NCBI GenBank assembly: GCA_963693365.1 | Contig: CAVNZM010000002.1 | Span: 9,025,059 to 9,089,058 of the forward strand | Length of the DNA: 64,000 nt | Source of the DNA: Amoebidium appalachense | Lineage: Eukaryota > Protista > Ichthyosporea | Direction of reading: 5' to 3' | Shown here: in pieces, positions 1 to 59,092 of the stretch | Layout: each line of letters opens with the position of its first letter | How positions within the stretch are numbered: position 1 is the stretch's first letter | Made by a program: the position numbers and the translations under genes | Notes under the pieces: generated by a model | Told to the model about the DNA's origin: nothing | Database searches by the model: none | What the model saw: only the letters and a program-made list of their open reading frames with translations

Positions 1-57
1 GGTCCACTTGAAGGCGCAATGTCTCCACATTCATGGTTTCTTCCCTCCCCCCCCCCC

Positions 58-88
<31 letters not shown>

Positions 89-105
89 CACACCCCTTCC
101 CTCCC

Positions 106-137
<32 letters not shown>

Positions 138-356
138 CCTTGCCACCTCCATTCCCACCTGCGGGGAGCATAATCTTAAGACATCGACTTAACCGAACTA
201 GACCAAAGGATCATACAATTCGTGCCGAAACCTAATAGGCTGCATCCCCGCCTCCCCCCGCCCCCCCTCCCCCCTCCCCCCTCCTTCCCCCCAAATTATA
301 ACTAGCCCTATATTGCCATAAAAGGAAACTGACACGTGCACCGTTTCTATTTTTAG

Positions 357-1811
357 GCCTTGCTAAGGCCACTCTTGCCGGGGAGGACGTCGACATCTAT
401 CTGATGGCCCAGCCGCCCAACGGTAGGTCACGTGACTTACTTGAGAAACACCAAATGTTTCATCCATTTTCGGTCCTTTTTAAAAGGGGGTTTTGAAGCA
501 ATCTTTGAATGGGTTTTTTGAAGCGTCTTTTAGAGAAACATTCTAATTATGTGTTTGCTATCTAAAAATGCTTATTGGTGTATAGGATCGAACCCAAGCA
601 GGCTGCTTCATCCTCTCTTAATTTAGGGAAGTTAAAGAAGCTTTGCAGAGCATCTATCACTAGGCAGTAATTATCATACTAATTATTTGAACAAGGTCCA
701 ATCAAGCCAGTTTAGCACATTTAAGAGAAATCATAGAAGACCTTACAATAAGCGAATAGGATCCACCGAGGTCACTCCAACCCAATATGGGAAGTTAAAC
801 AAGAACTTATAGTTAAAATAATTTACGAGTAAGGTGCAAATATGTCACTCTTCATTGCCTCAACCCGTCTTTGGTGCAGGGGAATGGGTCAAGGTGGGCA
901 GCACCAAGTCACGTGACAACGGCAAGGTGGAGTTCGAGGTGCCCCAGCAGATGGCCGTGGGCCACGGCATCTACCCCGTCACATTCCTGGTTAAAGGTGA
1001 GCCAATCATATGTGCTAGCTGAAGCTTAAAGTTGTTTTTTTTTTTTTTAGAGGTCGAACGCCCACATGGTCGCCACACAATGTCTGGTTCAAAGATGGAC
1101 AATTGCCATAGGGAGCGTTGATTGGAAAGGCCGGAAAGAGAAGTGTGCGCTTGTGTGTGTTTCTTTGTGCTGTATGTGTGTGTGTGCATATGTCTGATCG
1201 TATTTGGCTCTGTATGCCCCCCCCCCCCCCCCCCCCCCCCCCCTCCCCCTCCCCTCCCCCCCCCCCCCCCCCCCCCTCCCCTTCACCTTACCACCACCAC
1301 CACCACCACTACCACCACAGCAACAACCATCAGCACTATATCCTCAAACCAAGGAAAGAGAAGAAATGAAAAGAAAATAAAAGAAAGAGAAGAAAGGTAA
1401 AGAAAGAAGGAAGGAAAGAGTCTAAGAAGCAAGAATAAAGCCTATCCGACAAGTGCAAGTAAAAGAACTGCACGCAAAGGACTTATCTGCATAGATAAAT
1501 ATCATGAATAATTATGACCCCTCCCCCCCCCTCCCCCTCCCCCCCTCCATTTTTGCTTTCGACTCACTGTGTGCATGCAGGGGATCACAGCACAGCGGAG
1601 AGCCAACTGTTTGTGGTGAGGCCAAAAACCGAGGCTGTGGTGTTCAACATAGACGCTGCATTTGCAGGTGTGTGTGTGTGTGTGTGTGTGTGGGTTTGTT
1701 TGGGAGAGGAGGGGGGTGGGGGGGGGAGAGGGGGGTGCCTGGCAGACTCAATGTCCACATTACATAAACTTACTGTCGCACGTGCACGCACGCACACACA
1801 CACAACACACA

Positions 1812-1850
<39 letters not shown>

Positions 1851-2069
1851 GTACACACGCACGCACACACACGAATACACCCCCCTCCTCCCCCCCCGCC
1901 CCACACACACACACGGGCACACGGGGACACGGACACATGTGTGCAAGGTTATGGAGAGTTTGCTCGCAACCCCACACATGTACCGGAAAGGACCCACACA
2001 CAGGCACTCGTGGAGTTGTACAGTGATGCACATGCGTGGATGCAGATAGATCTGTCGTACACTACTTCC

Positions 2070-2104
<35 letters not shown>

Positions 2105-2381
2105 TGAGGGGCTACTCACCGGCCCTGGAGGTTTCCGTTTTTCTTTCCCTGCCCTCATAACAGCATTTACCCCTTCCCGCGCCCACTCCTCCCCTCCCCC
2201 CCCCCCCCCCCCTTTCGACTATCCCCCTTTTGATCTACCTCACTCACAGCTCAAAAATTTACTTCATCAAGGTGCACGTGCACTCACAGAAGCACACACA
2301 GGCGCACTTACACGCACAAGTACACACACGCATGCACACGCACACCCACATGTACACGGCTACTCACTCAGTCTCTGTCCC

Positions 2382-2412
<31 letters not shown>

Positions 2413-2542
2413 AAGAAAGAAAGAAAGAAAAAGAAAACCTCCCGCACAAACACACACATGCATACATGCACAATACACAGGCACACACACACACAAACAC
2501 AATCACACACACCGGCACGCATACACACACACACACACAAAT

Positions 2543-2604
<62 letters not shown>

Positions 2605-4672
2605 GCGCACACGCACACGCACACGCACACGCACACGCACACGCACACACACACGCACACACACACACACAGCAAGCATGTCCATTACGGGCTCCGACCC
2701 CAAACTTCAAGCACGTGCCGTGGATATTGCCCGTGAGTGGGCCAACAAGGACTATCTACTCGTATATCTCACTGCACGCCCGGATATCCAACAGGGTATC
2801 CCCCCCCCCCCCCCCCCCCCCTTCCTCTTGAAAAAAAAAGAAAAAAGGTGTAAATTTCTGGTAGACGCAATCACCTCGGGAAACTGTTTCCTTACATGTA
2901 TCCAAGTTACCACTCCAGATCTGTTTCGACTTTTTCAGCCAGACACACAAGGCTTGCTTTCCAACCTCTCTATTTTGTTGGTCTAGATTCACGTGCAAGT
3001 GATCTTTTGGCTAACATGCACATTCCAGCCAACATCACGAGGTGGCTAGCCCGGCACAACTTCCCATTGGGATGTCTCCATTTTACCGGCCTAATGGACA
3101 CCAAGAGCGGATATCTCAAGGTGGGTATATCTAAATGACACGCAAATACATTCTATAGGTTTCCTTGTGATTATGTTGGTTGAAACACTTTTTTTTTTTT
3201 TGAATGACTTTATTGATATAATCCTTGAAATATGAGAAACGGAGATATCACATATACCTCATAAGTAAAATAGAACACTGGATATATATCTACTCCCTAT
3301 CCAAATAATTTATGTCTGCAAATGTTTGTGCAGGTGCGTTCACCAACATCAGTGGGGTTGCATACGTGGCACACACAAACTCCTGATGGCACACGCTCGT
3401 GTTGGGTGTGCGGCCGTGTATGTGGTCGTGTATGTGTGCGTGTACATATGTGTGCGTACGTGGATGTGTTCGTGCGTACGTGCGTGTGTGCGAGTGCGCG
3501 TGTGTGTGGGTGTTCGTGTGTGGGTACGTGTCTGTCGCTGGGTGGTGTGAGTGTTTTGCACGTTTCAGTATCCACTCCAGACAGAGGCAAAATGGAATCA
3601 TGATTCTGATCGGCTATTATCTGACCGATCGGTCCCATACACGTCAGGGATTGGTGGAGGAGACCGAAATCGTCGTCAGAGCAGGTGGGCCTTCCCCCCC
3701 CCCCCTCCCCCCCCACCCCCCTCCCGATGATGGGCTATGTTCAGCCTGCACGTTTTTTTATATTATTTTTTATAGTTCGATTTTGGGTTTATTGTTTTCG
3801 TGATGTTTAATGTTTTGTCCTGTGGTGTCTTCTCCATATTTCCAAACCTCTAATGCATCCCCCCCCCCCCCCCCCCCCTCCCCCCTCCCCCCCCAACACA
3901 CACACACACACACAAGCACATACACACACATTCTCTACTTTTCCAGGAACAAAACTTACACATGCACACACAAAAAAGAGCCAAGGTAGTTTGAAGACAG
4001 GATCAAGAAATGAATGTTACGAGAACGTCCCAACGCATTTGACTGATTCATTGCCATTTTTTTCTTGTCAGTTTTCGATATTCTCTCTGTCTTTTATTGT
4101 CGAACTCCTACACACAAACAGACACATAACCAATCACATAACAGACACAACTACACACAAACAGACACATAACCAATCAAATAATACGACCAATCAAACC
4201 CCCCTTCTGACTGAAATTTCCCTCTGAAATTTCCCTCTTTCCTTTTCTCTCTTCCCACCACCTCAGCCTACGGTAGCCCCAAGGACGTTGCCATTTTTGC
4301 ATCTGCCGAAATTTCAGCCGACAACATTTATATTTTAGGCAAGGGGAAGGACGCCGCAAAGTATCTTCCCTCAGGATACACACAGGTTGGTGCTCCCACT
4401 CCCTGCCACCAGCATAAATTGCCAATCTGTGTCATTTCATGTGTTTCATGCCAGCATTATATCCCTTATGTGCTTCCCAGTGTACGTTTCAACAGTCACA
4501 CTTTCCTTCCCCGGTATTTTTCTAGAAATCTTGTTGATTTAATTCTTGATCCTTCTAAAGCATCACCATTAGAGCCTCCTGTAATTTCTTCCTACAGCCG
4601 TCTGTGATGTCATGCTAAAACCTCCTCCCCCCCCCCCCCCCCTCCAACCACACACAAATACACAGACACAAA

Positions 4673-4767
<95 letters not shown>

Positions 4768-6449
4768 TACACACACGCACACACACACACACATACCGGC
4801 CCACCCACCCACCCACCACCACTCACGCACAAACACACATACATGCTCTTATCATCATCATCAAGTTCTCTGTCTGTCTTATCGAAAATCCTGCCCACTT
4901 CCTCACCCCCCCCCCCCCCTCCCCCCCCCCCCCCTCTCCCCCTTCCCCCGTTCGGCATGCCTAACGCGTAGTTGCTGACAAAGGTGTGCCTGTGTTGTGT
5001 CCACAGGAGCATTTGGATGAGATCAAGCAGAAGCCACAGGCAAACATTGGCCTGCCAGCAGTGGTGAGTACTACTTCTCCTCCCTCTCAACCCCCTCCCC
5101 CCCCCCCCCTCCTCCCCCCCTCCCCCCCCCCCCCCCCCCCCCAACACACACCCACAGAGACCTATCACCATCATCCCCCACCACCACGAGGTCCACCACC
5201 ATCCCCCCCCCCCCCCCCCTCCCCCCCCCCCCCCCCCCCACCACCTCCACCCACACACCCACCCGCACACACACCCCTCACTCTCTCCCTCTCCTCCTCT
5301 CTCCTCTCCCCCCCCCCCCCCCCCCTCTCCCCCTCCTCCCCTCCCCTTACCAAAAAGTAATGATCTGCTGACGTGTACGTGCAACACACACAGGACACTG
5401 TTCTGACCAAGCGAACTCTGCGCAACTCACGGAGCAACATAAGCCTCACTGGAAACCGATTAAGCTCCACCAATGTAGAAGTATGCAACCACCTCCCCCC
5501 CCCCCCCCCCCCCCCCTTCCCCCCTCCCTCCCTCTCCCTCCCCCCCCCCCCCCCTCTACACACACACACACACAAACACACACGTACACACACGCACACA
5601 CGCACACACAAACACACACGTACACACACGCACACACGCACATGCACACGCACACGTGCACACAAACACACACACGTCCCTTTGTCGTCCCCCCCCCCTC
5701 CCCCATCTTCCCCCCTCTCTCCCCTGCCACCCCCCTCCCCTCCCCCGGCTCCCTTTAAAAAACCATTCCACGCCCTTACCCTTGCCCTCTTACCTGGTAC
5801 TGATTTAAATGCGCTGGCCACACTTTCTGATTACCATGTTTTTGTAATGCAGTTCGCTTCCACCCCCCCCTTCTCGTGTGAAAAAAGAGCTTCTATATAT
5901 AAATTATTTATTCTCTCTCCCGGTCTTTTCGTAAAAGCCTGGGGGTCATCCAACTTCAAATCGTCCGTGAGAGTGAGACCAAACCCATGCAATGTGCTAC
6001 AAAACACTTACCCGCCCGTTCCCACCCGCACCACAACCTGACTTGCAAATGTGTGTTTGCCCACCATCTACAAATGGGAAGGTTTACTACTCGCATGCGC
6101 TTGGTTGGACTGCTGTTCTGCCCCTTAATAATCATTTTTTTGGTATTTGGTATCGACTCGGTTAAATTCTGTTTATATATACCTAACCAACCCTTCTCCC
6201 TTCCCCCCCCCCCCCCCCCTCTCCCCCCCCCCTCAGGCCCGTCCCTTTTGCCTCCACCTCCGCTTTCCCTCCCCCGGCCCACCACTTCGTGCTCACACAC
6301 ATACGCACACACGTGCACATGCATACAGTCACACGTAAACACACACGCACACACGCACACACACGCACGCACGCACGCGCACACACACACGCACACACAT
6401 GCATACAGTCACACGTAAACACACACGCACACACGCACACACACGCACG

Positions 6450-10970: not shown

Positions 10971-12319
10971 TTAACCTATTCATAGATGATTTGGCTGTCA
11001 AGATTTATGCCGAAAATGATGACCCAATTAATAACTTTCCGCCTGCACTTCTCTATACTGATGATCTGTCCCTCCTTGCCCGTACCCCTAGACGCCTGCA
11101 AAGATTGTTCGATATAGTGTCAGAGTGGTGCAAGGCAACCTTATGATCCTTTATCATAGACAAATGTGGTGTTCTTGTACCTGATATAGCTAACAATTTA
11201 CACACATTTACATTATCATCTAAACCTGTACCAATCGTTCCAGAATACAAATATCTTGGTGTTCCGGTCAATTCTGTTGGTGTTATGTTTTCCCATATGG
11301 TTGAAAAGAGGGTAGAGCTGGCTCGTTAGCGGTTAGCTTCTTCTCGGCTAATATTTTTTAAGACACACCCCTCCATCCTTCTATTAGACTTACATTTATT
11401 CGCACTTTTGTCTTCCCGGCATGTGAATATGGTTTACCCCTTCTCGCCGCTTGGATCAAGAAAGAGAGAACTGGAGCGCTTAAACCCTTGGCAAATTTCC
11501 TTGAAGTAGAAGGTGCCTCCTTTCTATCTAACAACTGTCCTGGGCCTGTAACGCTCTCGATATATGGTCTGGTCCCAATAGCTGCTAGAGTATCCCATTT
11601 CGCGCTGAAAATCAATAAGCACATAAGCCGCTTACAGAATTATCTGCCCTCCCACCCTCTCTTCTCTATCCGACCTGTCCCCTCCCCACCTCTCCCCTCT
11701 TTCCTTCCCTCCCTCTCTCCTTCTTCCCGGGGCACAAATACAAATAAACCCAGCAAAAGTGTGCGTGTGAATTTGGACTGCCACTTACTTATTAGACATG
11801 TACATGATCACAAAATAATTACACAATATAACAAATGGAAAAAGATACCACACGACACTAGACCCGATGAAAGCAGACACCCTGAAAAACTAAGCCTTAT
11901 GTCTCGTTTTATATGTAATGACCGCCTTAACCATATTGCCAAATATGGCACTCGCAAATGTATAACACCTAAATACATATTACCTTCCTGTAGAACTGGT
12001 CTTTCTCTAGCTGATGGTATTATTGATCACTTACCACGCTTTTACTGTACAGGAGCTATACAGTGGAGATCTAAGAAGTATAAGGTGGCATCGTTTACAT
12101 GCCCAAACAACACACACGCACCCCAGTTTAAACGATCATGTATCGCCAAATGTAGTTTGATAGACCACATAATACCGCAACACACACACGACACATTCAC
12201 AACAGACACCCAGAAAGATAGCCTACCTGAAAATTACAACATCCTTGATTTTATACTAAACACACGTAATTATGACCTGTTTATTAGATGTATCAGTGAT
12301 TGGCTTGAGAAACACATCA
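10971..12319 (+). mobile_element. Degraded, 5'- and 3'-truncated copy of LINE family A (RT C-terminal part)
   Basis: Near-identical to 47389-48741. Has YTDD instead of YADD, -1 frameshifts near 11138 and 11339, and an aag>tag nonsense change near 11327. It stops just before the ORF stop codon and lacks the 3' UTR. Confidence 0.95.
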
Positions 12320-13261
12320 TGTGTGCATGCAGGGGATCACAGCACAGCGTGGAGCCACCCGGGACAAGTCTTGTATACGAGTGTGTTGGCATGATCATGA
12401 TGCGGCGTGAATAATTATTAACCAGAAGTCTCCTTCATACAGGGGCTAGAAAATCTGTCAATGAACCTGGCACAACGAAAGAGTGCAAGGCGGTGCATGC
12501 GCACGTGCATGACAGATCAGCAAAAACAGAAGTTGAACCGGTTTGGTATTTGATTATGGGGAAAACAGGTCTCATCTGCGTTGATCTACTGTATTTTTTC
12601 GTATATTCATAATCTTAGACTGTTGTAGTTTTTTGTTATCTCGGAAGAGTTGTAATTTTTGATGATTTATGATTCTTATGTAGTCACGTTCTGTCGTTGT
12701 GTTTGCTCAGTAATCATGATTTATTGTAGTGTCTGTGGCCGAATGCCGGGTTTAACATCTATTGTAGCCACGTAGGGTTCGTCTGCTTTATGTATACCTT
12801 GCCCGGGTCTTTGTGGTATTCACCATCTGTATCATACAGTGTGTTTCAAATTTCCCCATTGATGTCCATAATGTTGTGCACGACTTGATCGAGCTGGATC
12901 GGATTCGATTTTGACCGCTGCCCTTGAATATATATCAAACAACTCACCTGCAAGAACCCTGAAGACAAGCAGACAAATGCGTTCAATGGATTACTTTAAA
13001 CAACAATAACGGTATACTACACAAAATAAGGAAACGTGTACACATACTACCCAGCCCTTTAGAATGAGTCTACACACTTCATCCTTTAGTTTTGGACGGG
13101 CATTATAAGGTCACACAGGCCACATGTAAAAAACTCAATTTAAATCAAACATCTACGATATCAGTCACCTAAAAGGAAAACCACTCAAGAACCCCATTCT
13201 CAGTCGCCACTACAGAATAAACTCCTACTTCACGAGGTACACTCGGCCCGTCGACCACCCA

Positions 13262-33510: not shown

Positions 33511-35557
33511 CGGGGAATAGAGGAACAAATGTGTTTTTATGTGCAGTTTACCGCATGGTACTTGCACAGAAGAATACCCCAGGTTTGATAAAAAATGGGG
33601 GTCTCTCCAAAAGATGCATGTGTGGGTGTCTAAATGAGTATATGGGTGCGTGTGTGGCTACCTATAAGGGGGAGGGGGGGGGGGGGGGGGGGGTTTCAAG
33701 GAACCAATAAGGAGACAGTCAGCAGATGAAGTGCGGGGAAGACCATGGGACGAAGAGCAGGGGGAAGGGGGCAGAGGCCGGAGGCAAAGCAAGCGAGGGG
33801 GACAGAAGAGGCCGAGGGAGAAGGAGGTGGGGAAGGGGGGAGGTTGGGGGGGGGGGGGGGGGGGGGGAGGGGGGGGGACAGGTAGGGGCGCGACCCACAT
33901 ACACCATAATGGCATGACCATCCCGCCCACCTTGTATTCGTCTGCAGAGCCAACCCGTCCAGGCTCAAAGTCAAACACGGCCTTACAGTTATCGTACGCA
34001 CAGAAGTGCTGCTGCTGCATAAACCGGCTTTTTGATGTCGAGCTGCTGAAGGAGATTGAAAACATCCCCACAGCCAGCAAGCAGCGAAGAACACTCCTGC
34101 AAGGACAAATTGTCAGAGAAGCATACTACGGAAGGGACTCCGAAACTGCTTTGTATATAATGTCTGTTTTTTTTTTCTCGTGAAATGGTAGGCAACAAGT
34201 GCTATGACTCCCCCCTCCTCCATCCGGCCCTTTTCTATCCCCCTCCCCCCCCCCCCACCCCCTTCCCCCCCCCCCCCCCCACCCCACCCCTCCTGGCTTT
34301 CCTTTCCTCCGTCTCCTTTACTCTCATTCAACCGCTTCTATCCCTTGCCCTCCCCACACCACAGCATGGCCGACTCCGTGTGTTTTCGTCTGTCCAGCCG
34401 ATATAAAGAAGAAGGGACAGGGATTACATGTCGGGGGAAATGGGGGAAGGAGTCAGAGGAAAAGGGGGGGGGGAGGGGGGGGGGGCCACGCTTGAATCAG
34501 AACTAACGGTCTCCTGTCGTTAAAGCTTATGCACACTCACAGCAAATATACATACAGAACAGTCACTCATCTCCCTATCTTTCCCACTCTCTGCCCACAT
34601 CCCTCACTTCGCTGCTGGTGCAGACAGATTTCCTATTATGCCACATCAAGAACCCTTCTCCCTTGGCACGTAGAGTTATAAGCATAACACAGCCACCCGC
34701 AGACAGATTTTTTCATACTCCTCACAACATAATAAAACCGTGATGACAACTGTGTCACACACCCACCTCAAAGGTCATGTTACCCTTGCAGATTGTCGTA
34801 GGTCAACGAATAGGGTACACCCTCGCCTTCACCTTTCCGATGAAATAGTTCCGCAAGCACACAGAACAATAACTGTCTCTACATCCCAACCTCACAAGCT
34901 CAAAGTCGGCGTTTCCCTCGAGACATACGGGGCAATCCTGAGACACTTTATCTTTGCCATGTGCACGTTGCGGTAAAAGCCCCTGTGCTTTCGCATCGTT
35001 TCGCACAAGCTTCTCCAATTCTTGGTTGAGTTGCTCTGTAGTCTTATCTTGGTTTTCTGGTTTTGCCAACAGATTCGCGAGTATTTCATTTTTTCTCTCA
35101 GCCAGAACCCTGGCCTGTTCTCTCGCCGCACTCTCAGAGAAGTGGTAGAGCTTTTGCCTTGGCTAAACATCTCGGGGAATATTTCGCTTTCAAGCCGACC
35201 GCTTACTCCCAGCTCTTGCAGCTGTATGCGTAAGGCCGACGGATACGCCAGATCCGGCTTCGTTGTGAAAAATAACTCCCACAACAAGTAGCTCTCGACC
35301 ACTGCTTGCCACTGTGTGCTAGCTTGGCCTCAAAAGTACCACAGCTGCACAGGTTGACCGATAGCCGGTTCTTTCTCTTATTTTTTTCGCGTGTGTACAT
35401 ATGTAGGCCATGTATAGTGTCGGACGCCGTAGAGTAACCCCCTCTGAGATGCTGGGGCTCAATCGCGCACATACGTGCCACGCGTACGGTGGCTGCGGTA
35501 TCACCAATATGGAGGGGTATGACGTCATCAGCCGCCTTAAAGCCCCGAAAATGACGT

Positions 35558-35597
35558 AATTCTAGCGCACGCGCACACACACACAAACACACACACA

Positions 35598-35640
<43 letters not shown>

Positions 35641-35671
35641 CCAGCTGATACCGAGTGTCCCAGGGGAGCCC

Positions 35672-35720
<49 letters not shown>

Positions 35721-35923
35721 GGGGAACCCCACCTAATTGATTTCTCCTTGTAGTCTTTATGGTGTCTCGTAGAGAAAGTAAACCCTGATATAGCCTATAC
35801 TATAGTCATCACCCGACATCTATGTACGTGATCATGATATACCGCTGAGGGGATATTCCGAGCAAAACCCCCCCCATACCTGAGACTGGTTTCTCTTTGC
35901 CTCGAGTAAACAGCGTAAACCCC
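35558..35923 (+). mobile_element. LINE family A 3' UTR copy; possibly the tail of a 576-bp SINE-like element at 35348-35923
   Basis: Matches ~48748-49112, including the (CA)n tract, the internal poly(A) and the terminal GTAAACCCC. An 8-bp direct repeat cacagctg lies at 35340-35347 and 35924-35931. Confidence 0.9.
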
Positions 35924-35931
35924 CACAGCTG

Positions 35932-36371
35932 TTTATTAATAGAAAATTTGCTTTTGACTGGATTTATTCGACGGAAAGATATTGTGTGGGGGGCGGTTTA
36001 CTCGCGGCTGCATATCTATCAATAAATGCAACCTGTTAGCTAATGTATTAGAACCGGAGGTTGTTGGCGGTTTTATTCTCTTTTCTTCCTCTCTTCCTCA
36101 ATATATCCGTTTTAAGATGACTATCCTAGATCACCTTATTAATGCTGCACAGTATGATATTGTGATCCGGTGCCTTAACTTTCTTTCGGGGCTACCGATG
36201 CTAGCCTCTGCTTACCCATAATATGTAATAGGGGTGTCATATACTACGATGGCGCTCATTGTTGCCTAGCATGTACATATGTCACTGGCTGCATTTGATT
36301 GGCTGTGCTGGAAAACTCGAATGTGGCTGGGCCTCCGGCAGTGTCCACGCAATAAAAAGTGTGTAAACCCC
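35932..36371 (+). mobile_element. 3' fragment of a second, divergent LINE family (B)
   Basis: ORF 35982-36221 (CGGRFTRGCISINKCNLL...TILDHLINAAQYDIVIRCLNFL) aligns by eye with the family A C-terminus (FNRSCIAKCSLI...NILDFILNTRNYDLFIRCIDWL). It is followed by an unrelated 150-nt 3' UTR that ends in GTAAACCCC. Confidence 0.8.
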
Positions 36372-36713
36372 TTTCATATATGGCAAATTTACCATTTTCT
36401 ACAATTTCGAGTTTCTGACCATGATTTTAGATTGTATATTTTTTTTTGGCTCTTGTATATATTTGGCTATCTCATGGGGGGCTCCAGGCCCCGCGCAGTG
36501 TTTGCAGCCTATTGCGTTATCCAGCACGGCCTACTACACAGCAACCCCTACAAGCACAATACATACGTGGGAAATGCTGCAACTATCATCACTCAGGTGA
36601 CCGGACTAGTAGTGTGTGTGTGTGTATGTGTGTGTGTGTGTGTGTGTGTGAGTGTGTGTGCGTGTGTGTGAGTGTGTGTGCGTGTGTGTGTGTGGGTGTG
36701 AGTGAGTGAGTGA

Positions 36714-36751
<38 letters not shown>

Positions 36752-37067
36752 GTACATATGTGTTGACATGTGGGTGCATGTGTGTGTGTGTGGGCGCGCG
36801 CGCGCAGCGCGTAATTGTGTGCCGTGCGTGCGTGCGGGAGAGGGTGTGCATGCATATGCATGTGCATTACCAGTTCTACGAGCCCGAGCGTCTTTTATCG
36901 AACAACTCCTCTTTTCCAGGCTAGCGCTACTCTTGAGGCATAGAACAACGGCCACAAGCATGTATGCTTTGGGTCTACTGGATTATCTAGGTGGCACGGG
37001 TTCGAACCTTGGTGCGCCAACTTTTTTTTTTTTTTTTTTTTACGTTCGCATTTATTTTATTTTATTT

Positions 37068-37109
<42 letters not shown>

Positions 37110-37189
37110 CCGAGCACATCTCCTGCAAGCTCTTGAAGGGATACGTCGATTGCAGTAGATATTATTAAATTTGCATGCGTAGTTTAGGA

Positions 37190-38070
37190 GATACAAGAGG
37201 TACAAAAATGATGACGTCACCAGCCGCCTATTTTGGCCAAAATTTCTATGAGCACATCAATAAAGTCATAATAAATAAATAAAAATTCGCAACGAGAAAA
37301 AAATATTTTTGGCATTTTCGGAAATTTTGAAACGTGCCTTGGTAGCCCTCGATGAGACGCTTCTAAAAATGCAGTTTACGCCCCAGCGTAGCAATTTCCC
37401 GATCCCCCATGATCGTCGATTTGATTCTAAGATCTAAAGTGTCCACGCAATAAAAAAGTGTGTAAACCCCAAGATCTAAACTCTCCCACGGGGTCGATCT
37501 GATCTACGTCGTCCCGGCGGCCACCATAGCTTTAGGCCCAACTGTTTTACTTTCCAAATCCAGTATAGAAAACTTTCTTTTTTTGGGAATGAGCCTTCTC
37601 TACGGATTGGCGAAGACTCAAGCTTGGTCCTTGACCATGAAGGTTACGTAACCTTCAGCCCATTGGCTACGACCCCGTCGGGGCCGGGGGGCCAAATTCC
37701 GATCATTCCTGAGCTATTTGCACACGGGCCACGAAGTGTAATAAAAGTGACGACCGTCGTACTGTGAGCGGGTCCAATTCTCAGTTCCGAACACCGGGTA
37801 GGCCTGAAACACGGCCCTCTGAAAACACCGCTGACTGGCTGACTCGTATGCGCATGTATGGAAAAATATGTCGCTGAAGCCAACTTGTTGACCCCGCCAT
37901 GGCCAACCTAGGTAGATAAAACGTTACCAGGTAAACTACAAAAAAAAAATTTGATCTTGAGGCAGGTGCACACATGAATTTAGTGCCCATACGGAATATG
38001 TACATGCGCACATGATGGATCCATAGAAATTTAGAAAACCAGAAAAACACCTTTCATAACTTATTTGAAC
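37190..38070. mobile_element. Possible degraded DNA-transposon remnant
   Basis: Microsatellite-free non-coding block with an imperfect inverted repeat aaatttctatg-N4-catca (37240-37259 vs 38012-38031) and a central 20-bp palindrome at 37638-37657. Ends are not defined. Confidence 0.35.
37439..37470 (+). mobile_element. 32-bp, extremely 5'-truncated family B insertion with 10-bp TSD
   Basis: gtgtccacgcaataaaaaagtgtgtaaacccc matches 36341-36371 with one extra A. It is flanked by aagatctaaa at 37429-37438 and 37471-37480. Confidence 0.9.
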
Positions 38071-39188
38071 GTAGCCTACTTACAGAACAGTACTTCTACG
38101 TGCAGGTCAACATTCATAGGTTTGTTTGCCAAAGGCGTGCCGCATGCGCATATCGTGCAAGGTGAGGCAAATAGATTTTCCGCTCAGCCATTGGTTGGGA
38201 ACATGCCATGGGATATTCCCAAGAATGCAAAATCTGCACAGCTGTATAGTGTTGAACCTTTGTCTCTTTGATATCAGACTATTATAGGACTTCAGCACAA
38301 TGCAGATCCAAGGAAATAAACGTTTCCCTTAATAATGCCTGTGCAGGCTGCTTTATTATTTCTCAACGCGCCGCAAAATAAGTATGATAACCGCAATCGG
38401 CACAGACATGTCTTGTTTCACTGACGCATACCTAACCGTTATAATTGCATACCAGCGACATACAACAGTGTAACAACACAGGACAATGCATCGTTCTGAT
38501 TGGTGGTCCGTCAACAAGACCCAATCTTCATTTGGTTACTAAATATGTATCCTTACCCTAAAAAAGCCTGTATTGATGGCTTCATGCAAAAATTAGAACA
38601 TGGTTCCGTAATATTCATGTTATTATTAAATAGGTTTATAGACTGCAAGAAAATAGCACGGGGTTTAATATTCTATACATCTTCATAAGGTATGACGCCA
38701 CCACATGTGACGGCTGGAATATATATAAATTGCATAGTTGTCGGTACGCGGTACACATGTATGTACATATAATATTTGGGCTCTGCTCTAGCTTTCGTGT
38801 CATTGCCGCCCGAATATTTTTCTACATATACACTAATTGGGTGTGAAATCATAACGTTGGTTTTCTTCCGCTCTAAGGTAAAGAATTAACCGCAACTATT
38901 CTTGCAGTCTGTGTCATATGAATGATCTTATGCGCGGTGCCGAGCAGAGCTGAAAGAAGTCCGACCGATGTGGCGTGACTGCGCGCACTGCAGGCAAACC
39001 ATTGCAAACTGCGTGACCTCATGCGTTTGGTCATAGGCTTTTGTAGTTTTTATTTGGAAAGGTGCTGTCGCGGAGGTCTGCGCGGCGCTGCATGTGTACC
39101 GCTGCACCGAGCAGGCCTTAAAATAACAATTCGTTCAGGTCATTATCAAGATTGTGCTTGGATTGCACGCAGCCAGGCACGTACCACC

Positions 39189-40295
39189 ATGTTCCTGTTA
39201 CTCACTTTCTTGTTATCCCTTAGTAGTACTGGCGCAGAAGGTGCTGTTGTCACAGTAGCTCCTGGTGTAGGGTCCCTCTCCACGGCAATCCAGGGAGCAG
39301 GGAATGGAGACACGTTGGAACTTGGCGCAGGTGTTTACACGGAAACGGGGCTACTCAGTTTCAACTCCAGCGTGAGTATTGTGGGCAGAAATGACAACAC
39401 AACCTTCTTGAATGTGACGGGTGGATTGGGGCTGCACAATTCAGTTGCTGGCGTAGATGCAGGAGTGTATAACGTTTCGTTTTCGAATCTTACGCTTACA
39501 TCGCCTTTGGCTCCAAGGCCGTGCTTCCCGTCCTACCCTGAGCCCCTCAGAGCCAACTTCTCGGTCGATATTGTGTCTGTTGAGGTCAGAAACAACATGC
39601 TTAACGTTGTTGCAGGTAAGCTACTGTTGAGATACTATTGCCATGGTATACGTTAATACCGGGATAAAATACACAGCTATGATGGTACCGAACGAAAGGA
39701 AGGCTGTCAGTGTCAAGAGTGTAAGTCTGCAACATGTTTAGGGTCGAGTCGAACATTTAAATAGAGGAATAATATAGAACTACTGAGATTTATGGATTAA
39801 TGACTACTCAGTAAAAAATTATATTCACGGTGCCACAATCGTGACATTGCCTATCTATTTTTGGTGGGTTAAATACCCCCCCCCCCTCCCCCCCCCTCCC
39901 TCCTTCTCCTCGCCATCATAACGGCTCACTTTCCCCGTGGCTTCAGGTTGTCACGATCTAATTTTTAGCCTTAACCAGGCGGGAAAAAAAGCTTGCATCA
40001 GCTGCATTGATATTCATGCTTGTTCTATGCTATTGATTAATCAAGGAAACCTTCTTCCTTTATTTTTTTTTTAAACAAAATGAACGTCTTTCAAATGTTT
40101 ACAGAAATCATTTTCAAATACGACACTCCCCCCCCCCCCCCCCCCCCCCCACCCCCCCACCCACCCACCCCTGGCTCGTTTGGGACTCACCCTCTGCCGC
40201 TATGTACTTAACGGTACGCTGCGTGCGTCTCGCTCGGGTAGAAATCCGTTTCAGCGTGAGAGTCGTCTCCGAGGCTCCCAAAGGAGACAGCTCCC

Positions 40296-40326
<31 letters not shown>

Positions 40327-42955
40327 AAAGTTCAAAGGTTAACCAAAAAGATAAGTAACCGTGGCTCTTCTGCATCTTTACGGTTGACTTATTGACTACC
40401 AACACAGACCTCGGGAAGATATTCGGCACGCGTTCGCTGACGGGGTTCACGATGGGTAACTGCACGTACAGTGCCGCGGCCGGCAGCGCCATCCGCACAA
40501 TGGCCACCCACGTGGCCATAGACACGTGCCACACCCTTCTTTCCTTCTCGCTGGAGTTCAGCAGGCTGCGCAACTGCGGCTTCACGAGAGAGACCGGCCC
40601 GCGCTTTGTGTCATATCTCGGCGAGCTCAACGTTAAATTCCACGAAACTGTCTCGATGAGAGGCCCCGTCGGTTCGGTGGCACGCACCGCAAACGCCATT
40701 GCAATCCTACGCATCCAGTTGGATAGACAGCGCGCGGTCTCTGCCACAGTGACGGTCAACTACGGCGGGGCCATCAAGGTGCAGGCAGTGATCACCCGCG
40801 TGGAGTTCAACGAGACAACCACCACGTCGCAGGTGGACGTTGCTGTCGTCATGCCGTACCCCTTCGTCGTGCCCACGGGGGTGGTCGGGGCCATGCAGGC
40901 AGTGAACACCACTCGGCCTGTAAACGTCAGCAGCATATGGACCATGGTCGACCCGTCGTGCCCGGGCAGGGGTGCTGGCCGTGCGTGCGCACAGAAATTC
41001 ACGTTCACGGTGGAGGGGTGTCTGCTTACGGGGGAGTATCTCGCCCAGAGCGTGCCCATAATGTGCCAGACCACCGACCAATACGGCAATCCGACGAGCC
41101 CCGATGACTGTCCCCCTACACCCAACGGCGGCATCGACGTGCGCTTCACGCTGGACTCGAAGGACTTCTGCGCCGTCAACGAAAACAACCTCGGCAGGCC
41201 CTTCAACGCAACCCTCAAGCTGTGGTATGTCAGTCTCGATGGTGTGGCAACAGTTACTGCCGCAACTGATTATCGGAATGTTCCGTGTTTCTCACGAGAC
41301 ACCCTTTTCTGTTGTTTTTTTGTGTGTTAACGTTTGTTCGTTTGTTTGCATTGTTTGTTTGTTTGCCGTTAAACTTTGTTTGGGTGGATGCATTGGTGTT
41401 GCTGCGGCACAGTGTTCTATTGACGTTTTATTTTTCACTTTTCTTTTTTCTTCCCCAACCCCCCCTCCCCCCGGGCCCCCTTCTCCCCCTGAGTCCCTCT
41501 TCTACTCTGTTTTTCTCACATGCTAATGGTGCCGTCAATGGGTGCCCCATGATAGTAGCCTAACTAAGCAGACACAGTACCGAACTCCGTTAATAATACC
41601 CCCCCCTCCCCCCCCACCATTTCTTACCTGCAGGGCCGATGCCAACTTCAGCACGCCACTCACAGCCAGGAGCCTGACTCTCGGCAGCAACATGTACTAC
41701 ACCATCGAGCTGACCCCCAGCTCCCTGGGCCTGTACATCGAAGACGCCCAGATCGTCAATGCCTCCCGGTTGGCACGCGAGGATGGCGGCGAGTACGCCT
41801 GCCCGGCCGGCGAGATCGACATTTCGGGATTCAACCAATCACAGGGCTCCGACGGGGACCTCCCGGGCATTTCTTCGATTGGCAGCTATCTGCCCCTTTC
41901 TCCAAATGTCACCTGTGTGAACGGAACTATCATAAGGGGTATGTAACACACCCGCACCCTCTTCCCCCAGCTCCGTTCACCGGAAAGCATTGCCACTGAG
42001 GTGACTATGGATGTGTACAGTTTATTTTGATTTCTTTTTTCTCCCTTTTTCTGCTTCAGCCTCTAGGTCAATTGCATCCAAAGGGTGGGTCAGCTATACT
42101 TCATCATCACATTTTTTTCAACCCACTTCGTTTCCTGTCTTTTTTTTTTTTTTTTTTGAACCCACAAAGTGCCCTATCAGTGTATTTGTTGTAGGTTCGG
42201 CAAGTCATCAAAAGGAGGGTAGTACCACTGCAGGCCTAGCTGTTTGAAATAGAGATAACCATTACGTGAAATGTATTTAACCAGTACGTGAAATGTATCT
42301 GACTTCCTACCCATTTGCACAGAGGAGGCCAACACAGCAATTTTTTTCACCAACTCAGACGAAACTGGCGAGTTCATCCAACTCAATAGCAAGGAGACAG
42401 TCACAGCACTTTCGTATGTCCTCAGTGCGAATATCTCGTCCATGGTTTTGTGCAATGTGACGGTCTACACGTTCAGCGAGCCCAACTTTCTGGGCACCAG
42501 CTACAACTTCAGCAACGTGGCGCCCGGCCCATGCAGCCACATAGACCTCACAGGTGGGTTTTACTTTTGCACGGAGATACTATGCGAATATGTAATCATT
42601 TTGTGGGAATGGTTTTTGTCGCAGGAGCGGCTTCTTCCCCCACCCCCACCACAAGGTGCCGGGGAAGGGGGAGGGGAGAAAAGTTAGAGAAGGGTTCGAA
42701 TACTCTTTTCTTTTTTTTTTGGGGGGGGGGGGGGGGGGGAGGGTGGGGGGGGGGGAAGGGGGGGATAAGAAGTAGCCTGAGGAATGTAGAGGAATGGCAC
42801 GCGCCGCTTAAGGGGAAGCACAACCCATAGGTTAGGCAATCATGAAAACGGTTTCGTTTGACATCAATTCTTCGCCGTCGTGCAGTTGACAGACCGGCAG
42901 CAAACAACCAAATAAGGTCAATCATGATGGCCGGTGCTCCACCTCCCCCAGGTGG

Positions 42956-42994
<39 letters not shown>

Positions 42995-43173
42995 CAACAC
43001 ACACACACACACACCACCACCACCACCAAGTTAATTTTTTTTTTTTTTGGAAGTTCCTTTGAGGCTCCGAATACATCCTCTGCCCCAACATTTTAATTTA
43101 CATCTGTTGGCACAAACGCCCTCAACCAGGCGGCACTGTCGTTCAGGGGGCGTCATGCATAGGCAGTCACTGC

Positions 43174-43207
<34 letters not shown>

Positions 43208-44140
43208 CTTTCTCCCTTTTTTTCTTTTCCCCTTCTTGACCCATTGCGCGACGACCACGACCTTTGCCTTCCATATAATCGCTTGCATGTGATCTTAAAT
43301 CAGAGTCTTCCTCATGTTTGTTGACTTTGTGTCGAGATCCACCCTGCTTTTGTACACTCCTGTCGCATTCCTCCCTCCTCCCCTGAACCACACACACACG
43401 CCATATAAGGACGAAGGGACCAAACCCCCGATGATCCCACACAAGGTGAACTGCCTTCCATATACGGTTCCTCATCTACCATAAATGGAGCAAGTGGGGC
43501 CATGGTGACCTTAATCGTTAACACCCACCCCCCTGACAGCCTTTAAGGGTGCCGGGTGCTATCGGCCCGGCTACTGGGACTTGTCCAACTACCAGTGGAA
43601 ATACAAGTTTGCCAACGCAACATCAGTTGAGTCATGCTACACGGCATGCAATACTAGGCCCTTCTTTATGATCGGTCTGGGCCGGTCATGCTACTGCGGC
43701 ATGATGTCAAAAATAGAACTCTACGGGGATCTGCACCCGTCTGCGTGGTGTGACCAGCGGTGCCCGGACGACGATATGGCATGCGGCGGCATCAACACTG
43801 GAAACTTATACCTTAAGACAGAGTGGTTAGCAGGTATGACACCCAACCCTCCCCAATCCCCCCCCCCCTCCCCCCCCCCCCTTCCTTCCCGCTCACTCCA
43901 CCCCACCCCGCTCTTCTCCCTATCCACCCACTCTCTTCTCAACCTATGCTTCTTTTCCGTGTTGCTCATGTCCCTTCCACTCCCCGCTCACTTCTTCGAA
44001 AAAATTAGACATCCATGCACAAGACCCAACATCAAAGGGTATGCATATATAATAATGGCCTTTTTTCCCTCTAAAAATGTACCTTCATCTAATCCCTCTC
44101 TCCCTCCCTCCCTTCATCAGCCCCTTCCCTCGCTCCTTCG

Positions 44141-44180
<40 letters not shown>

Positions 44181-44388
44181 ATCCTTCCTTTCCCCAACAT
44201 GCTGCCATTGTCTTTCGGTGCACCTGGGCAGTCACGCTCCCTCACATACTGACTGGTGATAGAACATGTTGTTTATTCTTTAATGTTTATTTTTAGATCA
44301 CACTTGTGAAGTCCCCACTGGTGACCCTTTTGGTGATCATGCTTTCCGGTGTAGAATCCTCTTTCCGAATCTGAAATGACAGTAGCCT

Positions 44389-44423
<35 letters not shown>

Positions 44424-44492
44424 TTCCCCCCCCCCCCCCCCCTCCCCCTCCCCTCCGTGTCCTCGTTCTTTCTGATGCATTCACCCATTCCC

Positions 44493-44524
<32 letters not shown>

Positions 44525-44866
44525 AAAAAAAAGAAAAAACAAAAAAAAGAAAAAAAAACCTCCTGGTTCTCCCCACTAATGCATACATGCCCACTGAGAA
44601 TGGGCCCTGCATATCCTGCGTCCTTGTCTTGTTTTGCCTTTCTGCTTTAGCTTGCATGTTACATGTGCTATCTCCTATTTGTTGTGCTCCACGTACTTCG
44701 TGTCATCACTGTATTCTGTGTAATGCATTCATACCCCCCCCCCCCCCCCCCCCCCCCTTCCCCCCCCCCCAACCCGGCAACTTTACAGAAAATTTAGCCT
44801 GCCTTTCCCCTTCTCCACCACCGCTCATGATGCCGACAATGTGGCACTCACACAAAACCAATACCT

Positions 44867-44937
<71 letters not shown>

Positions 44938-45281
44938 GAAACAGACAAGGTAGTACAGGTTTCAAGCGCGCTAGCGCCCAACCAAGGAGCTACAACAACA
45001 CTGACCACCTTGGATATGCCAACTATCCCGTCCACCGTCTATCCCATCGGCTATATGAGATACTGCAACTTGGCCTTCGAGATATTCGACAAAGAGAACT
45101 ACCAAGGAAACAGCAGCGTGTACTGGGCACCCGCATGTGCAGACATGAATTTGCCCAGCCACTTCCGAAACGGTAACATGAAATCCATGCGCGAAGTGAA
45201 ACTCACGGCCGTCCCAAGTATGTGTCTTCCCCCCCCCTCCCCCCCCCCCCCCCCCCCCCCCACCACCACCACCACCCCACC

Positions 45282-45326
<45 letters not shown>

Positions 45327-45607
45327 AAAAAAAAAAACCAACCCCACCCCCAAGATCAGACACACGCACGGCCTGTCACACCAAAACTTTCTTTGTTGAC
45401 CCTTTCGTGAGCTATCAGGCACCTACCCGGCTTATGGCTGGGCACACGTCTTCCCCTCCTCCCCCCCCCCCCCCCCCCCCCCCCCCTCAAATTGTCCCTG
45501 TTAACCCATGCACACACCGAGACCAACACGTATGCATCAAGGACCCCTCAAGTCTTGCTTCTGTCTCTCGAACACCGCATTCTTAGCAATAACCACTGCA
45601 CCTGCAA

Positions 45608-45653
<46 letters not shown>

Positions 45654-48600
45654 GCTTCCCACCAACCACCTCTCTCTTTCGTCCACCCCCCCCCCCCCCC
45701 CCCCCACCACTACCACCACCACCACCACCACCACCACCGCTCTGGTCTGCATCCTCCTGTTTGGAATTCGGTGTTTCCTGGTGCGTGTGCAAAGCATGTA
45801 GCAGACAAGTAAGCCGCTCTACCGGCCTAAAGAAGTACATTCTCGGTTTCTATAGAGTTTCTTTCTAATGTTTTTACTTTTGTATATTACCCACCATCTA
45901 TGTCGGTTGTCGAATTGACTCACGAGTTGTCACAGTTACCAATGTCCACTGTTATTTTAGGTGATTTTAACACGCGACTCCACCACACAGACACACTGCA
46001 AGTGAGTGTCGGGTACCCATCTAAGCCCCCGGAGCGTGCTATCCCTTTAGCAAGGTATGTCCAAAGTCACACTTTGCGGTTCCCTCAAATATCCCATGCC
46101 CACAACACCGACTGGGGAGTGGCCTTTTGGCCATCAACCATGTCAAAACTCTCTCTCCCTCCTAACCTCTCTAGGTCATCTGACCACTCTCCTATCCTTT
46201 TCCTACCTAAGATCTCCCTTGATCTGCTCCCCCCTCCCCCTCCCACCTTTCGCCTCCGTCTATCCCAGCTTAAGTCACAGTGGGGTAGAGTTGATGTATG
46301 TGTATGCTATGCTACGAAACACCCTATATATATGCGCCTATTAGAATCTGCACAAGCCAGGCCAGATTCACATCTCGTACTAGATACATGCACTAACTTT
46401 ATTGTTGATGATTTGATAGATCTCGGTGATTATGCTGGCGGTGGTAGGAAGGAATATCCCGATGCTCTCTTGTTACCAAACACCACTCCCGCTAGACTAG
46501 GTGAACCCCTGTCTCAAAAGGAAAGCTTGCGCCGGCTTGCTAGTATGAATCGATTTGGCCCCCCTGCTCGTATTATTGGTGATACCACTGGAGACCCCCT
46601 CATAGACTCTGATAAGTATTTCTCGGAACTGTTTAAAGATAGGACCCCCGCTCAGAAACCTATTGTGTGGCCTGTAGACCCATCTATCCCCATAGAATCG
46701 ATCCTCCCCTTTTTCAGTCCCGATGCCATATGGTCTGTGATATCTAGTTATAGCTCTAGTAAGTCTTGTGGACCTGATGGACTCCCTGCTGGGTTTCTTA
46801 AAATCCTTGTTCCCTCCTACCCACAAAAGGAAAGTGATCGTGCTATTAAACCTGATCTTACTATCATGTTAAGCTCTCTCTTTTCTTGGTGTGTTAAATG
46901 TGGACATGTCCCGTCATCTTGGTTAGATACCTTAGTGATCCCCATAGTTAAGAAGGACTCTGAGGGCCCCATATCATCCTTTCGCCCCATTACACTAACC
47001 CAGGTTGTTCGTAGATTCTTTGAAGCTTGCTTACTTAGGTTATTTGCACATCACCCTAGGTTTCAATCTATTCTTCACATACACCCATGCCAATCCGCTT
47101 TTCGTAAAAACAATTCATGTTATGTTCAAATAATGGCACTGCACGATTCTATGCAAGTTGGTGCACAATATGTTGGCTTTATTGATTGGAAAACTGCTTA
47201 CGATTCTGTCTCCCCTGGTCTCCTATGGGAAAAGCTTGCTGCACGGGGTGTACCACACTGCATTGGTGTTCTGTTAGAAGCACTCTTGTCTCAAACCTAT
47301 GGTAGAGCTGTGGTTAATGGGCATCTTTCATATGGTTTTGCTCGTACTAGAGGTCTCTTGCAGGGTTCATTGCTTAGCCCCTTTTTGTTTAACCTATTTA
47401 TAGATGATTTGGCTGTCAAGATTTACGCCGAAAACGATGACCCTATTAATAACTTTCCGCCTGCACTTCTCTATGCTGATGATCTGTCCCTCCTTGCCCG
47501 TACCCCTAGACGCCTGCAAAGATTGTTCGATGTAGTGTCAGAGTGGTGCAAGGCAAACCTTATGATCCTTAACATAGACAAATGTGGTGTTCTTGTACCT
47601 GATATAGCTAACAATTTACACACATTTACATTATCATCTAAACCTGTACCTATAGTTCCAGAATACAAATATCTTGGTGTTCCGGTTGATTCTGTTGGTG
47701 TTATGTTTCCCCATATGGTCGAAAAGAGGGTAGAGTTGGCTCGTAAGCGGTTAGCTTTCTTCTCGGCTAATATTTTTAAAGACACACCCCTCCATCCTTC
47801 TATTAGACTTACATTTATTCGCACTTTTGTCTTCCCGGCATGTGAATATGGTTTACCCCTTCTCGCCGCTTGGATCAAGAAAGAGAGAACTAGAGCGCTT
47901 AAACCCTTGGCAAATTTCCTTGAAGCAGAAGTTGCCTCCTTTCTATCTAACAACTGTTGTAAACCTGGGCCTGTAACGCTCTCGATATATGGTCTGGTCC
48001 CAATAGCTGCTAGAGTATCCTATCTCGCGCTGAAATTCAATAAGCACATAAGCCGCTTAAAGAAGTATTTGCCCTCCCACCCTCTCTTCTCTATCCGACC
48101 TGTCCCCTCCTCACCTCTCCCCTCTTTCCTCCCCTCTCTCTCCCCTTCTCCCCTGGGCACAAATACAAATAAACCCCGCAATAGTGTGTGTGTGACTTTG
48201 GACTGCCACTTACTTATTAAACATGTACACAATCACAAGATAATCACGCAATATAACAAATGGAAAAAGATACCACACGACACTAGACCCGATGAAAGCA
48301 TACACCTTGAAAAACTAAGCCTTATGTCTCGTTTTATATATACTGACCGCCTCAACCATATTGCCAAATATGGCACTCGCAAGTGTATAACACCTAAATA
48401 CATATTACCTTCCTGTAGAACTGGTCTTTCTCTAGCTGATGGTATTATTGATCAATTACCACGCTTTTACTGTACACGTGCTATACAGTGGAGATCTAAT
48501 AAGTATAAGGTGGCATCATTTGCATGCCCAAACAACACACACACACACCAGTTTAACCGGTCATGTATCGCCAAATGTAGTTTGATAGACCACATAATAC

Positions 48601-48759
48601 CGCAACACACACACGTCACATTCACAACAGACACCCAGAAAGATAGCCTACCTGTAAATTACAACATCCTTGATTTTATACTAAACACGCGTAACTACGA
48701 CCTGTTTATTAGATGTATTGATTGGCTTGAGAAACACATCACTACAAAATTATAGCGCA

Positions 48760-48828
<69 letters not shown>

Positions 48829-48860
48829 CCAGCTGATACCGAGTGTCCCGAGGGGAGCCC

Positions 48861-48917
<57 letters not shown>

Positions 48918-49507
48918 GAGGAACCCCAACTAATTGATTTCTCCTTGTAGTCTTTATGGTGTCTCGTAGAGAAAGTAAACCCTGATATATAGTCACCACC
49001 CGACATCTATGTACGTGATCATGATATACCGCTGAGGGGATATTCCGAGCAAAACCCCCCCCCCCATACCTGAGACTGGTTCTCTTTGCCTCGAGTAAAC
49101 AGCGTAAACCCCAGAAGTACATGGCTGCAAATGCATGCCCACCCCCAACCCACCCCACCCTACCGTTCCCTCCCTTTCTTCTTTTCGAACCGCAAGGACT
49201 TGCCTGCATACATTCATATACCGTATTTGCCTCATCACATATAGCAAGCCCATTACCTTTTTTGTTTCAGCAGTCAGATCGCATACCTTCATGGTTCCTA
49301 TCACTGACTTTCGTCCAACACCACAGCGGGTGGATGGTCGTCCACCCAATCAAGCACAGCCAATGCATCCAACCCCACGTCAGTCGTGTATGACGGAGAC
49401 GCCTCAGAGGATCGGTGTTTTTCAACCGCCAGCGAGCTGAATCCGTATATTGAGATTGATTTAGGGGCCCCTACTCGCATTGCTTTTGTAAGTATTGTTT
49501 TGTGCCT

Positions 49508-58390: not shown

Positions 58391-59092
58391 AGGACACACT
58401 CACACACACTACCACTACCACACAGATAAACGCCAAATCCCCAGCTTTCCACACCACCCCTGCCCAAATTGTAGCTACGTTTTTATCATCCGACAAGCAC
58501 AACACATACTCATCTGAGCATCACCGTATCAGTTTTTTAACATTAAATCAAACCAACAAGTTAAATGGCATTATCGCCGTATCAGTAATTCATTATCGAT
58601 TCTAAACTTAAAGATCATAATGGCATAAATGGGGTTTACCTGCAGGGAGGCCAGCTCCACGAGCAGCTCGCAAGCCTTCTGGAAGCGCTCCTTGCACTGC
58701 TGGATCTGCTTGCCGCCCTTGCCCAGACCCGTCATCTGGTACACTGCACAAGAACATAAACAAATAGCCAGTTTACCAGAAATCCCTTGATATGGTTATG
58801 CACTATTTCCAATTTAGGAGCTTGCACCATATATAGTCAAAGCATCTGGTACCCTGAACAAAACATTAACAAATAGCCATATTCCCAAAGTAGGAGCTTG
58901 CACCATATTAACACAAAGCATCTGGTACACAGCAACCATGGCGGCAAGGACACAAACATGCCTAGCGTGCACGTATGCATCGTGTAGGGTGCAGGGGTCG
59001 AAAAGGGGAAATGTTGCTAGTGTGTGGGCTTCACTGCATGCTAGCGCATCAGCCAAATTACACAATGGCATGCACACTTTAACGGGTACGTA

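Follow-up and report, generated by a model that had tools for sequence, protein, structure and literature searches.

How does a retrotransposon whose copies carry no tail fix the point at which each copy ends? The question is raised by a stretch of 64,000 nucleotides of Amoebidium appalachense (assembly GCA_963693365.1, contig CAVNZM010000002.1, positions 9,025,059 to 9,089,058; hereafter the window). A first-pass annotation had described there two families, A and B, of long interspersed nuclear elements (LINEs) sharing the terminal nonamer GTAAACCCC. The nonamer is present on the forward strand at 35915, 36363, 37462 and 49104, as had been reported, and each of these four matches forms the last bases of a repeat copy. 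The four are genuine insertions of LINEs that encode an apurinic/apyrimidinic endonuclease (APE) and a reverse transcriptase (RT), and they have a common tail-less end: a 3' poly(A) or short-repeat tail is found in none of the four window copies. The reading of this end that we favor, to which we give about even chances, is that target-primed reverse transcription (TPRT) is initiated at a position set by the motif.

The junctions themselves carry most of the evidence. Two of the copies, the long family A copy and a short family B stub, are bracketed by perfect 10-bp target site duplications (TSDs), which begin directly after the fourth C of GTAAACCCC, in agreement with the earlier description. 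Over 15,596 positions, a 10-mer recurs as background in 2.7% of cases within 3.3 kb and in 0.65% within 50 nt. Both TSDs start with A (AG and AA), and the bases 5' of the left TSDs are non-C; therefore, all four Cs are part of the elements. The nonamer is not part of the target site, since GTAAACCCC is absent before the left TSDs, and it is not a splice donor, because its GT is retained in the element. At the borders of the other two copies, which end at 35923 and 36371, no TSD was found; the 8-mer CACAGCTG at 35340, considered as a TSD of the first of them, was dismissed as a probable coincidence, being situated about 220 nt off the element border in apparently continuous other sequence. In all, GTAAACCCC occurs five times in the window against a shuffled mean of 1.5, and 4 of 100 shuffles attain five, which is only mildly over chance; the fifth match, on the reverse strand at 58631, looks like the exon|GT splice junction of a host gene and has nothing to do with the LINE copies. 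As the bare count is weak, the weight rests on the four forward matches that terminate homologous repeats. The 5'-truncated copies measure 3272, about 360 and 32 nt, and the clean TSD of the 32-nt stub indicates that the end is already determined in copies abandoned early. In both families a polyadenylation-like hexamer stands 13-16 nt before the end.

Family A is an APE-RT element whose open reading frame (ORF) remnant in the window, P0001, contains an RT (RVT_1, E=5e-28) with L1 ORF2p (148 bits) and R2 (142 bits) as its best PDB matches. The ORF is 98% identical to P0002 and 100% identical to P0140, both EukProt proteins from Amoebidium parasiticum transcripts, and hence family A is transcribed. 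The full-length P0002 provides the N-terminus absent from the window copy, and its similarity to the window starts at the left TSD. The APE assignment relies on catalytic-type motifs, which align with the PF03372-carrying relatives P0005 and P0015, as Pfam gives no APE match in P0002 and P0003. Family A showed no ORF1. The 3' untranslated region (UTR), aligned at 92% between 35558-35923 and 48748-49112, comprises a CA run, then 45-52 As in a row, then about 200 nt more. The internal poly(A) that had been placed about 195 nt inside the UTR is thus real, the A45 run ending 204 nt and the A52 run 196 nt from the terminus; the hexamer AGTAAA, 13 nt before the end, had been missed. A short G/C hairpin lies directly 5' of the internal A run (48840-48916), and together they may mark an older 3' end to which the last ~200 nt were added later. 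The degraded third copy is followed by a 38-nt repeat (12320-12357, with a 95% match at 1568-1605) that starts exactly where the copy stops.

Family B shares its C-terminal protein domain with family A. The domain is encoded at 35985-36218 (E=2e-4 to a profile built without family B), and among 309 stored sequences the best matches of the ORF end are P0003-family proteins (35%, 2e-6) and P0001 (32%, 8e-5). The segments 36340-36371 and 37438-37470 of the two family B copies align at 97%. Between the UTRs of A and B no similarity beyond shuffles was found (local score 13 against a shuffled mean of 15.5). The proposal that the two families have homologous ORF C-termini and unrelated 3' UTRs is therefore confirmed; the only conserved parts are the final 9 nt and a preceding hexamer, while the ORF ends are 32% identical. 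The AATAAA noted earlier in family B is indeed followed by the nonamer without poly(A), and stands 15-16 nt upstream of the end. Coordinates are collected in Table 1.

Table 1. LINE copies of families A and B in the window and their component features
Feature	Position	Strand	Remarks
Family A, long copy	45841..49112	+	5' truncation falls within the APE domain; APE-RT-zinc-finger ORF open (P0001, RVT_1, match to P0002); tail-less
Family A, left TSD of long copy	45831..45840	+	AGAAGTACAT
Family A, right TSD of long copy	49113..49122	+	immediately after the last C
Family A, ORF remnant P0001	45841..48755	+	APE C-terminal motifs (GDFN, SDH), RT, C-terminal Cys/His domain
Family A, internal A52 run	48865..48916	+	in the 3' UTR, 196 nt before the terminus
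Family A, 3' terminus	49094..49112	+	AGTAAA hexamer 49094-49099; terminal GTAAACCCC 49104-49112
Family A, 3'-UTR-only copy	35563..35923	+	left border accurate to within a few nt; A45 at 35675-35719; ends GTAAACCCC
Family A, degraded third copy	10971..12319	+	94.5% identical; truncated at both ends; 3' end lost
Family B, copy	35947..36371	+	likely internally deleted; ends GTAAACCCC
Family B, parts of that copy			36-nt putative 5' end 35947-35982; ORF C-terminus to 36221; 150-nt 3' UTR
Family B, AATAAA	36351-36356	+	in the 3' UTR, in the loop of a 5-bp stem
Family B, 3' stub	37439..37470	+	32 nt; ends GTAAACCCC
Family B, left TSD of stub	37429..37438	+	AAGATCTAAA; right TSD 37471-37480

The same end is found outside the window. 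Contigs of public assemblies from four of the 24 listed runs (X2, X6, X14 and X19) were aligned to 35722-36440. In X2, 24 contigs depart from family A at 35923 into unrelated flanks, whose consensus begins with A (agreement 0.4); one X14 contig departs at the same position, and a multi-copy contig of X6 appears to stop exactly there, the orientation being our reading. Among the loose ends listed for X19, ten contigs depart at 35923 (four), 35924 (four) and 35925 (two), and one listed piece departs after two Cs. Some of the later X19 exits are attributable to chance, since the window's own flank starts with CA; longer C runs at family A junctions probably do occur. No poly(A) was seen at the loose ends of either family among those listed, and one X14 contig at the family A end was rejected because it looks like a fold-back artefact. 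Because the exits lie on the last C or close to it and the flanks beyond them are unrelated, the terminus is common to many family A insertions, with four Cs as the mode. The tail-less common end thus extends to many copies in other assemblies; the word "fixed", used in the first-pass annotation, does not hold strictly for the C run, whose length varies among contigs.

For family B, the depth of X2 over the terminus drops from 39,650 to 1,178 and then to 0. In three X2 contigs the family B end, which there has just two Cs, is joined to the putative start of the element, whereas a further contig joins it to an internal UTR position; these joints suggest head-to-tail copies or re-initiation; the end is not covered by contigs of X6 or X14, a gap that is uninformative. 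In other assemblies the sequence beyond 35947-35982 differs from that in the window (25 contigs in X2), as does the sequence leading up to 35983, which by eye supplies the rest of a CxxC motif. Given these differing continuations, the window copy appears to be a short 5' end joined to a 3' end, and is probably internally deleted.

A fixed end implies either a fixed RNA end or a fixed positioning of the enzyme. Positioning, probably at a poly(A) junction that the hexamer defines, is preferred in view of the A that opens both TSDs and of the restriction of conserved sequence to the hexamer and the nonamer; the TSDs, taken with what is established for LINEs, imply TPRT with a 10-nt stagger. The RNA would probably be cleaved and polyadenylated just after CCCC, as the position of the hexamer suggests, and the LINE protein would likely grip the last ~35 nt of its RNA. 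By analogy with known TPRT, the endonuclease would nick the bottom strand with the 10-nt stagger, and reverse transcription would begin at the final C of GTAAACCCC, leaving the RNA beyond it uncopied. At most one or two As of the tail would pair with a T-ending primer, and as a consequence no tail would be written; read-through RNA would do equally well as template. Several points weigh against motif-positioned initiation. No RNA 3' end has been observed, and X19, the one aligned run that may derive from RNA (its RNA status is a guess), gives contigs that enter genomic-looking flanks, without a poly(A) consensus among those listed. Two of the four window copies, those with no TSD, have C or T rather than A as the next base, and the C-run length varies in some contigs. 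The family B end is supported by two window copies and one depth drop, and the four family B junction contigs, among those listed, have just two Cs. RNA folding is not significant, all 15 z-scores falling between -0.71 and +1.08.

The RT of family A belongs to a broad lineage. Relatives are 24-48% identical and share a C-terminus of the form W-R...CxxC..F.R.H..C...LD.LLN. In a tree of 84 RT domains, obtained by a quick search and without bootstrap, the 36 chosen core sequences form one group (SH-aLRT 94-95), and P0001, P0003 and P0004 cluster together at 99; the sister group of the core consists of 16 sequences, including Rhizopus proteins. An earlier FastTree of 192 sequences is in agreement (0.983). 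The core is separate from P0095 and P0113, which we take to be L1-type and whose branches are long, and thus does not group with L1/Tx1; P0095 carries zf-RVT, and the outgroup clades bear names that we presume from their C-terminal motifs. Target specificity of the R1 type is also absent, as the four window flanks are unrelated and the 24 X2 flanks agree poorly. With the C-terminal profile, 658 clusters at 50% identity were matched, not all of which need belong to the lineage. The sole core member named from another host comes from the fungus Smittium; a fragment labelled as Daphnia, whose sequence by eye is almost that of P0003, probably represents contamination. Viral contigs yielded no protein relatives, and five DNA-pattern matches to them are due to chance. 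Prokaryote genome contigs gave 36 loci, none of which matches the C-terminal profile; eukaryote-type LINE sequences within prokaryotic genome bins (L081-L101) are probably contamination as well. The ESM Atlas returned generic RT/APE or unnamed clusters only. Two fungal clades, Inkcap and Deceiver, reportedly treated by Novikova et al. in 2009, are said to be little described; given the Smittium member and the Rhizopus proteins in the sister group, the lineage may be one of them. The portions of PMC4427930, PMC3411680, PMC9674265 and PMC6136362 that were consulted contain no description of Inkcap or Deceiver 3' termini.

Metagenomic relatives allow the 3' end to be followed through the lineage. 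Eighty of 404 confirmed stretches were examined, nine of them in the core group, of which eight have DNA after the ORF (L004, with none there, was left out); three ORF ends were reset by hand because of broken frames. GTAAACCCC follows the RT ORF in none of the 80 loci, and the suggestion that the motif characterizes a whole clade is thus not borne out. In three of the eight core loci TAACCC or TAAACCC follows the ORF, and two of these have short CCCTAA repeats. L001, from another organism, has TAAACCCC; AATAAACCCC lies 300 nt past its stop, and about four degenerate CCCTAA units come after it. L013 shows three homologous 3' ends with AATAAA, two of which pass into CCCTAA-type repeats, and L002 is a circular, head-to-tail two-ORF unit in which TAACCCTAA lies between ORF2 and the following ORF1. 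All three have an AATAAA-like hexamer shortly 5' of their CCC. The motif TA(2-3)CCC is found within 400 nt of the stop in these three of eight core loci and in 3 of 54 others (p=0.024; p=0.007 with fewer controls, 1 of 50), and 37 of 2000 shuffles attain three core loci; it is lacking in L003, L005, L006, L008 and L009, among which L008 looks tandem. The strict form TAAACCC gives 1/8 against 0/54 (p=0.13). As the motif was partly chosen post hoc and the control tails are shorter, this telomere-like excess is a lead, not a result. In L002 the complete unit spans 1-5583 and its ORF1 has an N-terminal Cys/His motif, with no Pfam match above cut-off; L001 and L004 likewise have an upstream ORF1. 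L006 contains, at 3628-5374, a lineage member broken up by ~420-nt repeat units capped with TTAGGG, and its sequence finishes in a terminal TTAGGG array. We advance with considerable doubt the idea that these elements form an undescribed, large lineage of fungi and ichthyosporeans that primes on telomere-repeat-like RNA ends, and that the Amoebidium branch left the telomere and froze one unit as a 9-nt start signal.

Such a history would also permit a different account of present-day priming, in which an ancestral CCC(TAA) RNA end annealed to G-rich telomeric DNA and one frozen unit was kept as an anchor; in a variant of it, the Cs of the element perhaps pair with non-templated Gs added to the nick. 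As an origin this is compatible with motif-positioned initiation, and it competes only on how priming works now, where we consider it unlikely. The repeat units of L001 and L013, the L002 junction, the motif excess in the core and the terminal array adjoining L006 fit it, as do the variable number of Cs and the head-to-tail family B junctions. However, the motif choice was partly post hoc, its strict form is not significant and five of the eight core loci lack it; the orientation of L006 is opposite to priming by the G strand, and non-telomeric DNA comes after the tails of L001 and L013. No telomeric repeats are found in the window, so its copies are not telomeric insertions, and neither TSD target offers a G for pairing.

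The RT of R2 can start at a free RNA end without pairing. An RNA cut by a ribozyme or a host nuclease to end at CCCC, with RT starting unpaired at that end, would be the simplest account of a fixed tail-less terminus, and the first flank bases do differ between insertions. We nevertheless judge it quite improbable: no Rfam family approaches its threshold in the UTRs of family A or in most of the family B copy (only sub-threshold CrcZ matches, 12-14 bits against 95), there is neither a folding signal nor a structure common to A and B, and a polyadenylation-like hexamer stands at the usual distance. The nonamer might finally have no function, being an ancestral residue or the product of a tail swap between families that prime independently. 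The last ~200 nt of family A follow an internal A run and could be a captured module, and the terminus is known in two families only; on the other hand, the last 9 nt are identical while the other UTR sequence has no detectable similarity, and L001, from another organism, ends in TAAACCCC. We place very little belief in this explanation.

Positioning by a terminal motif has partial parallels in known elements. Drosophila R1 is APE-encoding and tail-less. According to the parts of PMC2718515 that we consulted, its 3' junctions are precise, also at non-rDNA sites, it makes TSDs and it forms tandem arrays; it targets 28S ribosomal DNA (rDNA), and its off-target sites retain 4-9 bp of target identity. 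The statement that APE-type LINEs normally end in poly(A) or short repeats, on which the annotation had relied, was in this respect too strong. The present elements are like R1 in their precise junctions, TSDs and tandem arrays, and unlike it in that the flanks are mutually unrelated and the conserved part lies inside the element. Specific recognition of the 3' end is established for many LINEs, and in the stringent ones, such as UnaL2 of eel, the I factor and SART1, a specific 3' sequence sets the start of reverse transcription, as is the case here in our preferred reading (PMC3747384, consulted in part). The stringent LINEs, however, have variable tandem repeats (TGTAA in UnaL2, TAA in the I factor) or poly(A), often with a clear stem-loop, whereas the present families have one non-repeated terminal unit and no significant fold. 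SART/TRAS, MoTeR1, Zepp, GilM/GilT and HeT-A/TART show telomere-like 3' junctions and head-to-tail arrays, features also seen among L001, L002 and L013, and belong to other clades in the sections of PMC10088271 available to us.

The choice of the first base is understood mainly for the poly(A)-primed L1, the repeat-tailed L2/CR1/I and the site-specific R1/R2. Precise tail-less ends alone are known from R1; what is new is their combination with dispersed insertion and with a nonamer kept across families that are ~32% identical in their ORF ends. Among the titles listed in literature searches, which extended neither to Repbase nor to most subscription papers, none describes this terminus, and the main text of the Amoebidium genome paper, as far as consulted, reports a RepeatModeler2 annotation only and contains no telomere terms (PMC11244446). 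A compact, apparently single-ORF LINE that enters many sites with a near-exact tail-less junction would make the positioning rule testable by a few point changes, and might serve defined-end gene insertion. If the frozen-unit reading is true, it is a natural LINE writing an exact tail-less 3' junction at dispersed sites; if the telomere link is true, the element documents a passage from priming of the telomere type to insertion at dispersed sites.

Other features surround the copies. Two similar 19-nt motifs (18/19 identical) with a TGACGTCA core lie at 35500-35562 and 37205-37230, one of them beside TTAA; they look like the ends of a TTAA-type DNA transposon, which we presume to be Kolobok-like, and three of the four LINE copies are within or beside these regions. 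A piece of ORF on the reverse strand (34803-35162), with a weak RING-finger match (E=0.0045, below cut-off), possibly belongs to an adjacent DNA transposon or to a host gene. The window is rich in homopolymers of at least 15 nt, with 68 C runs, 42 G runs and 9 A runs, those of C and G lying mostly in apparent introns.

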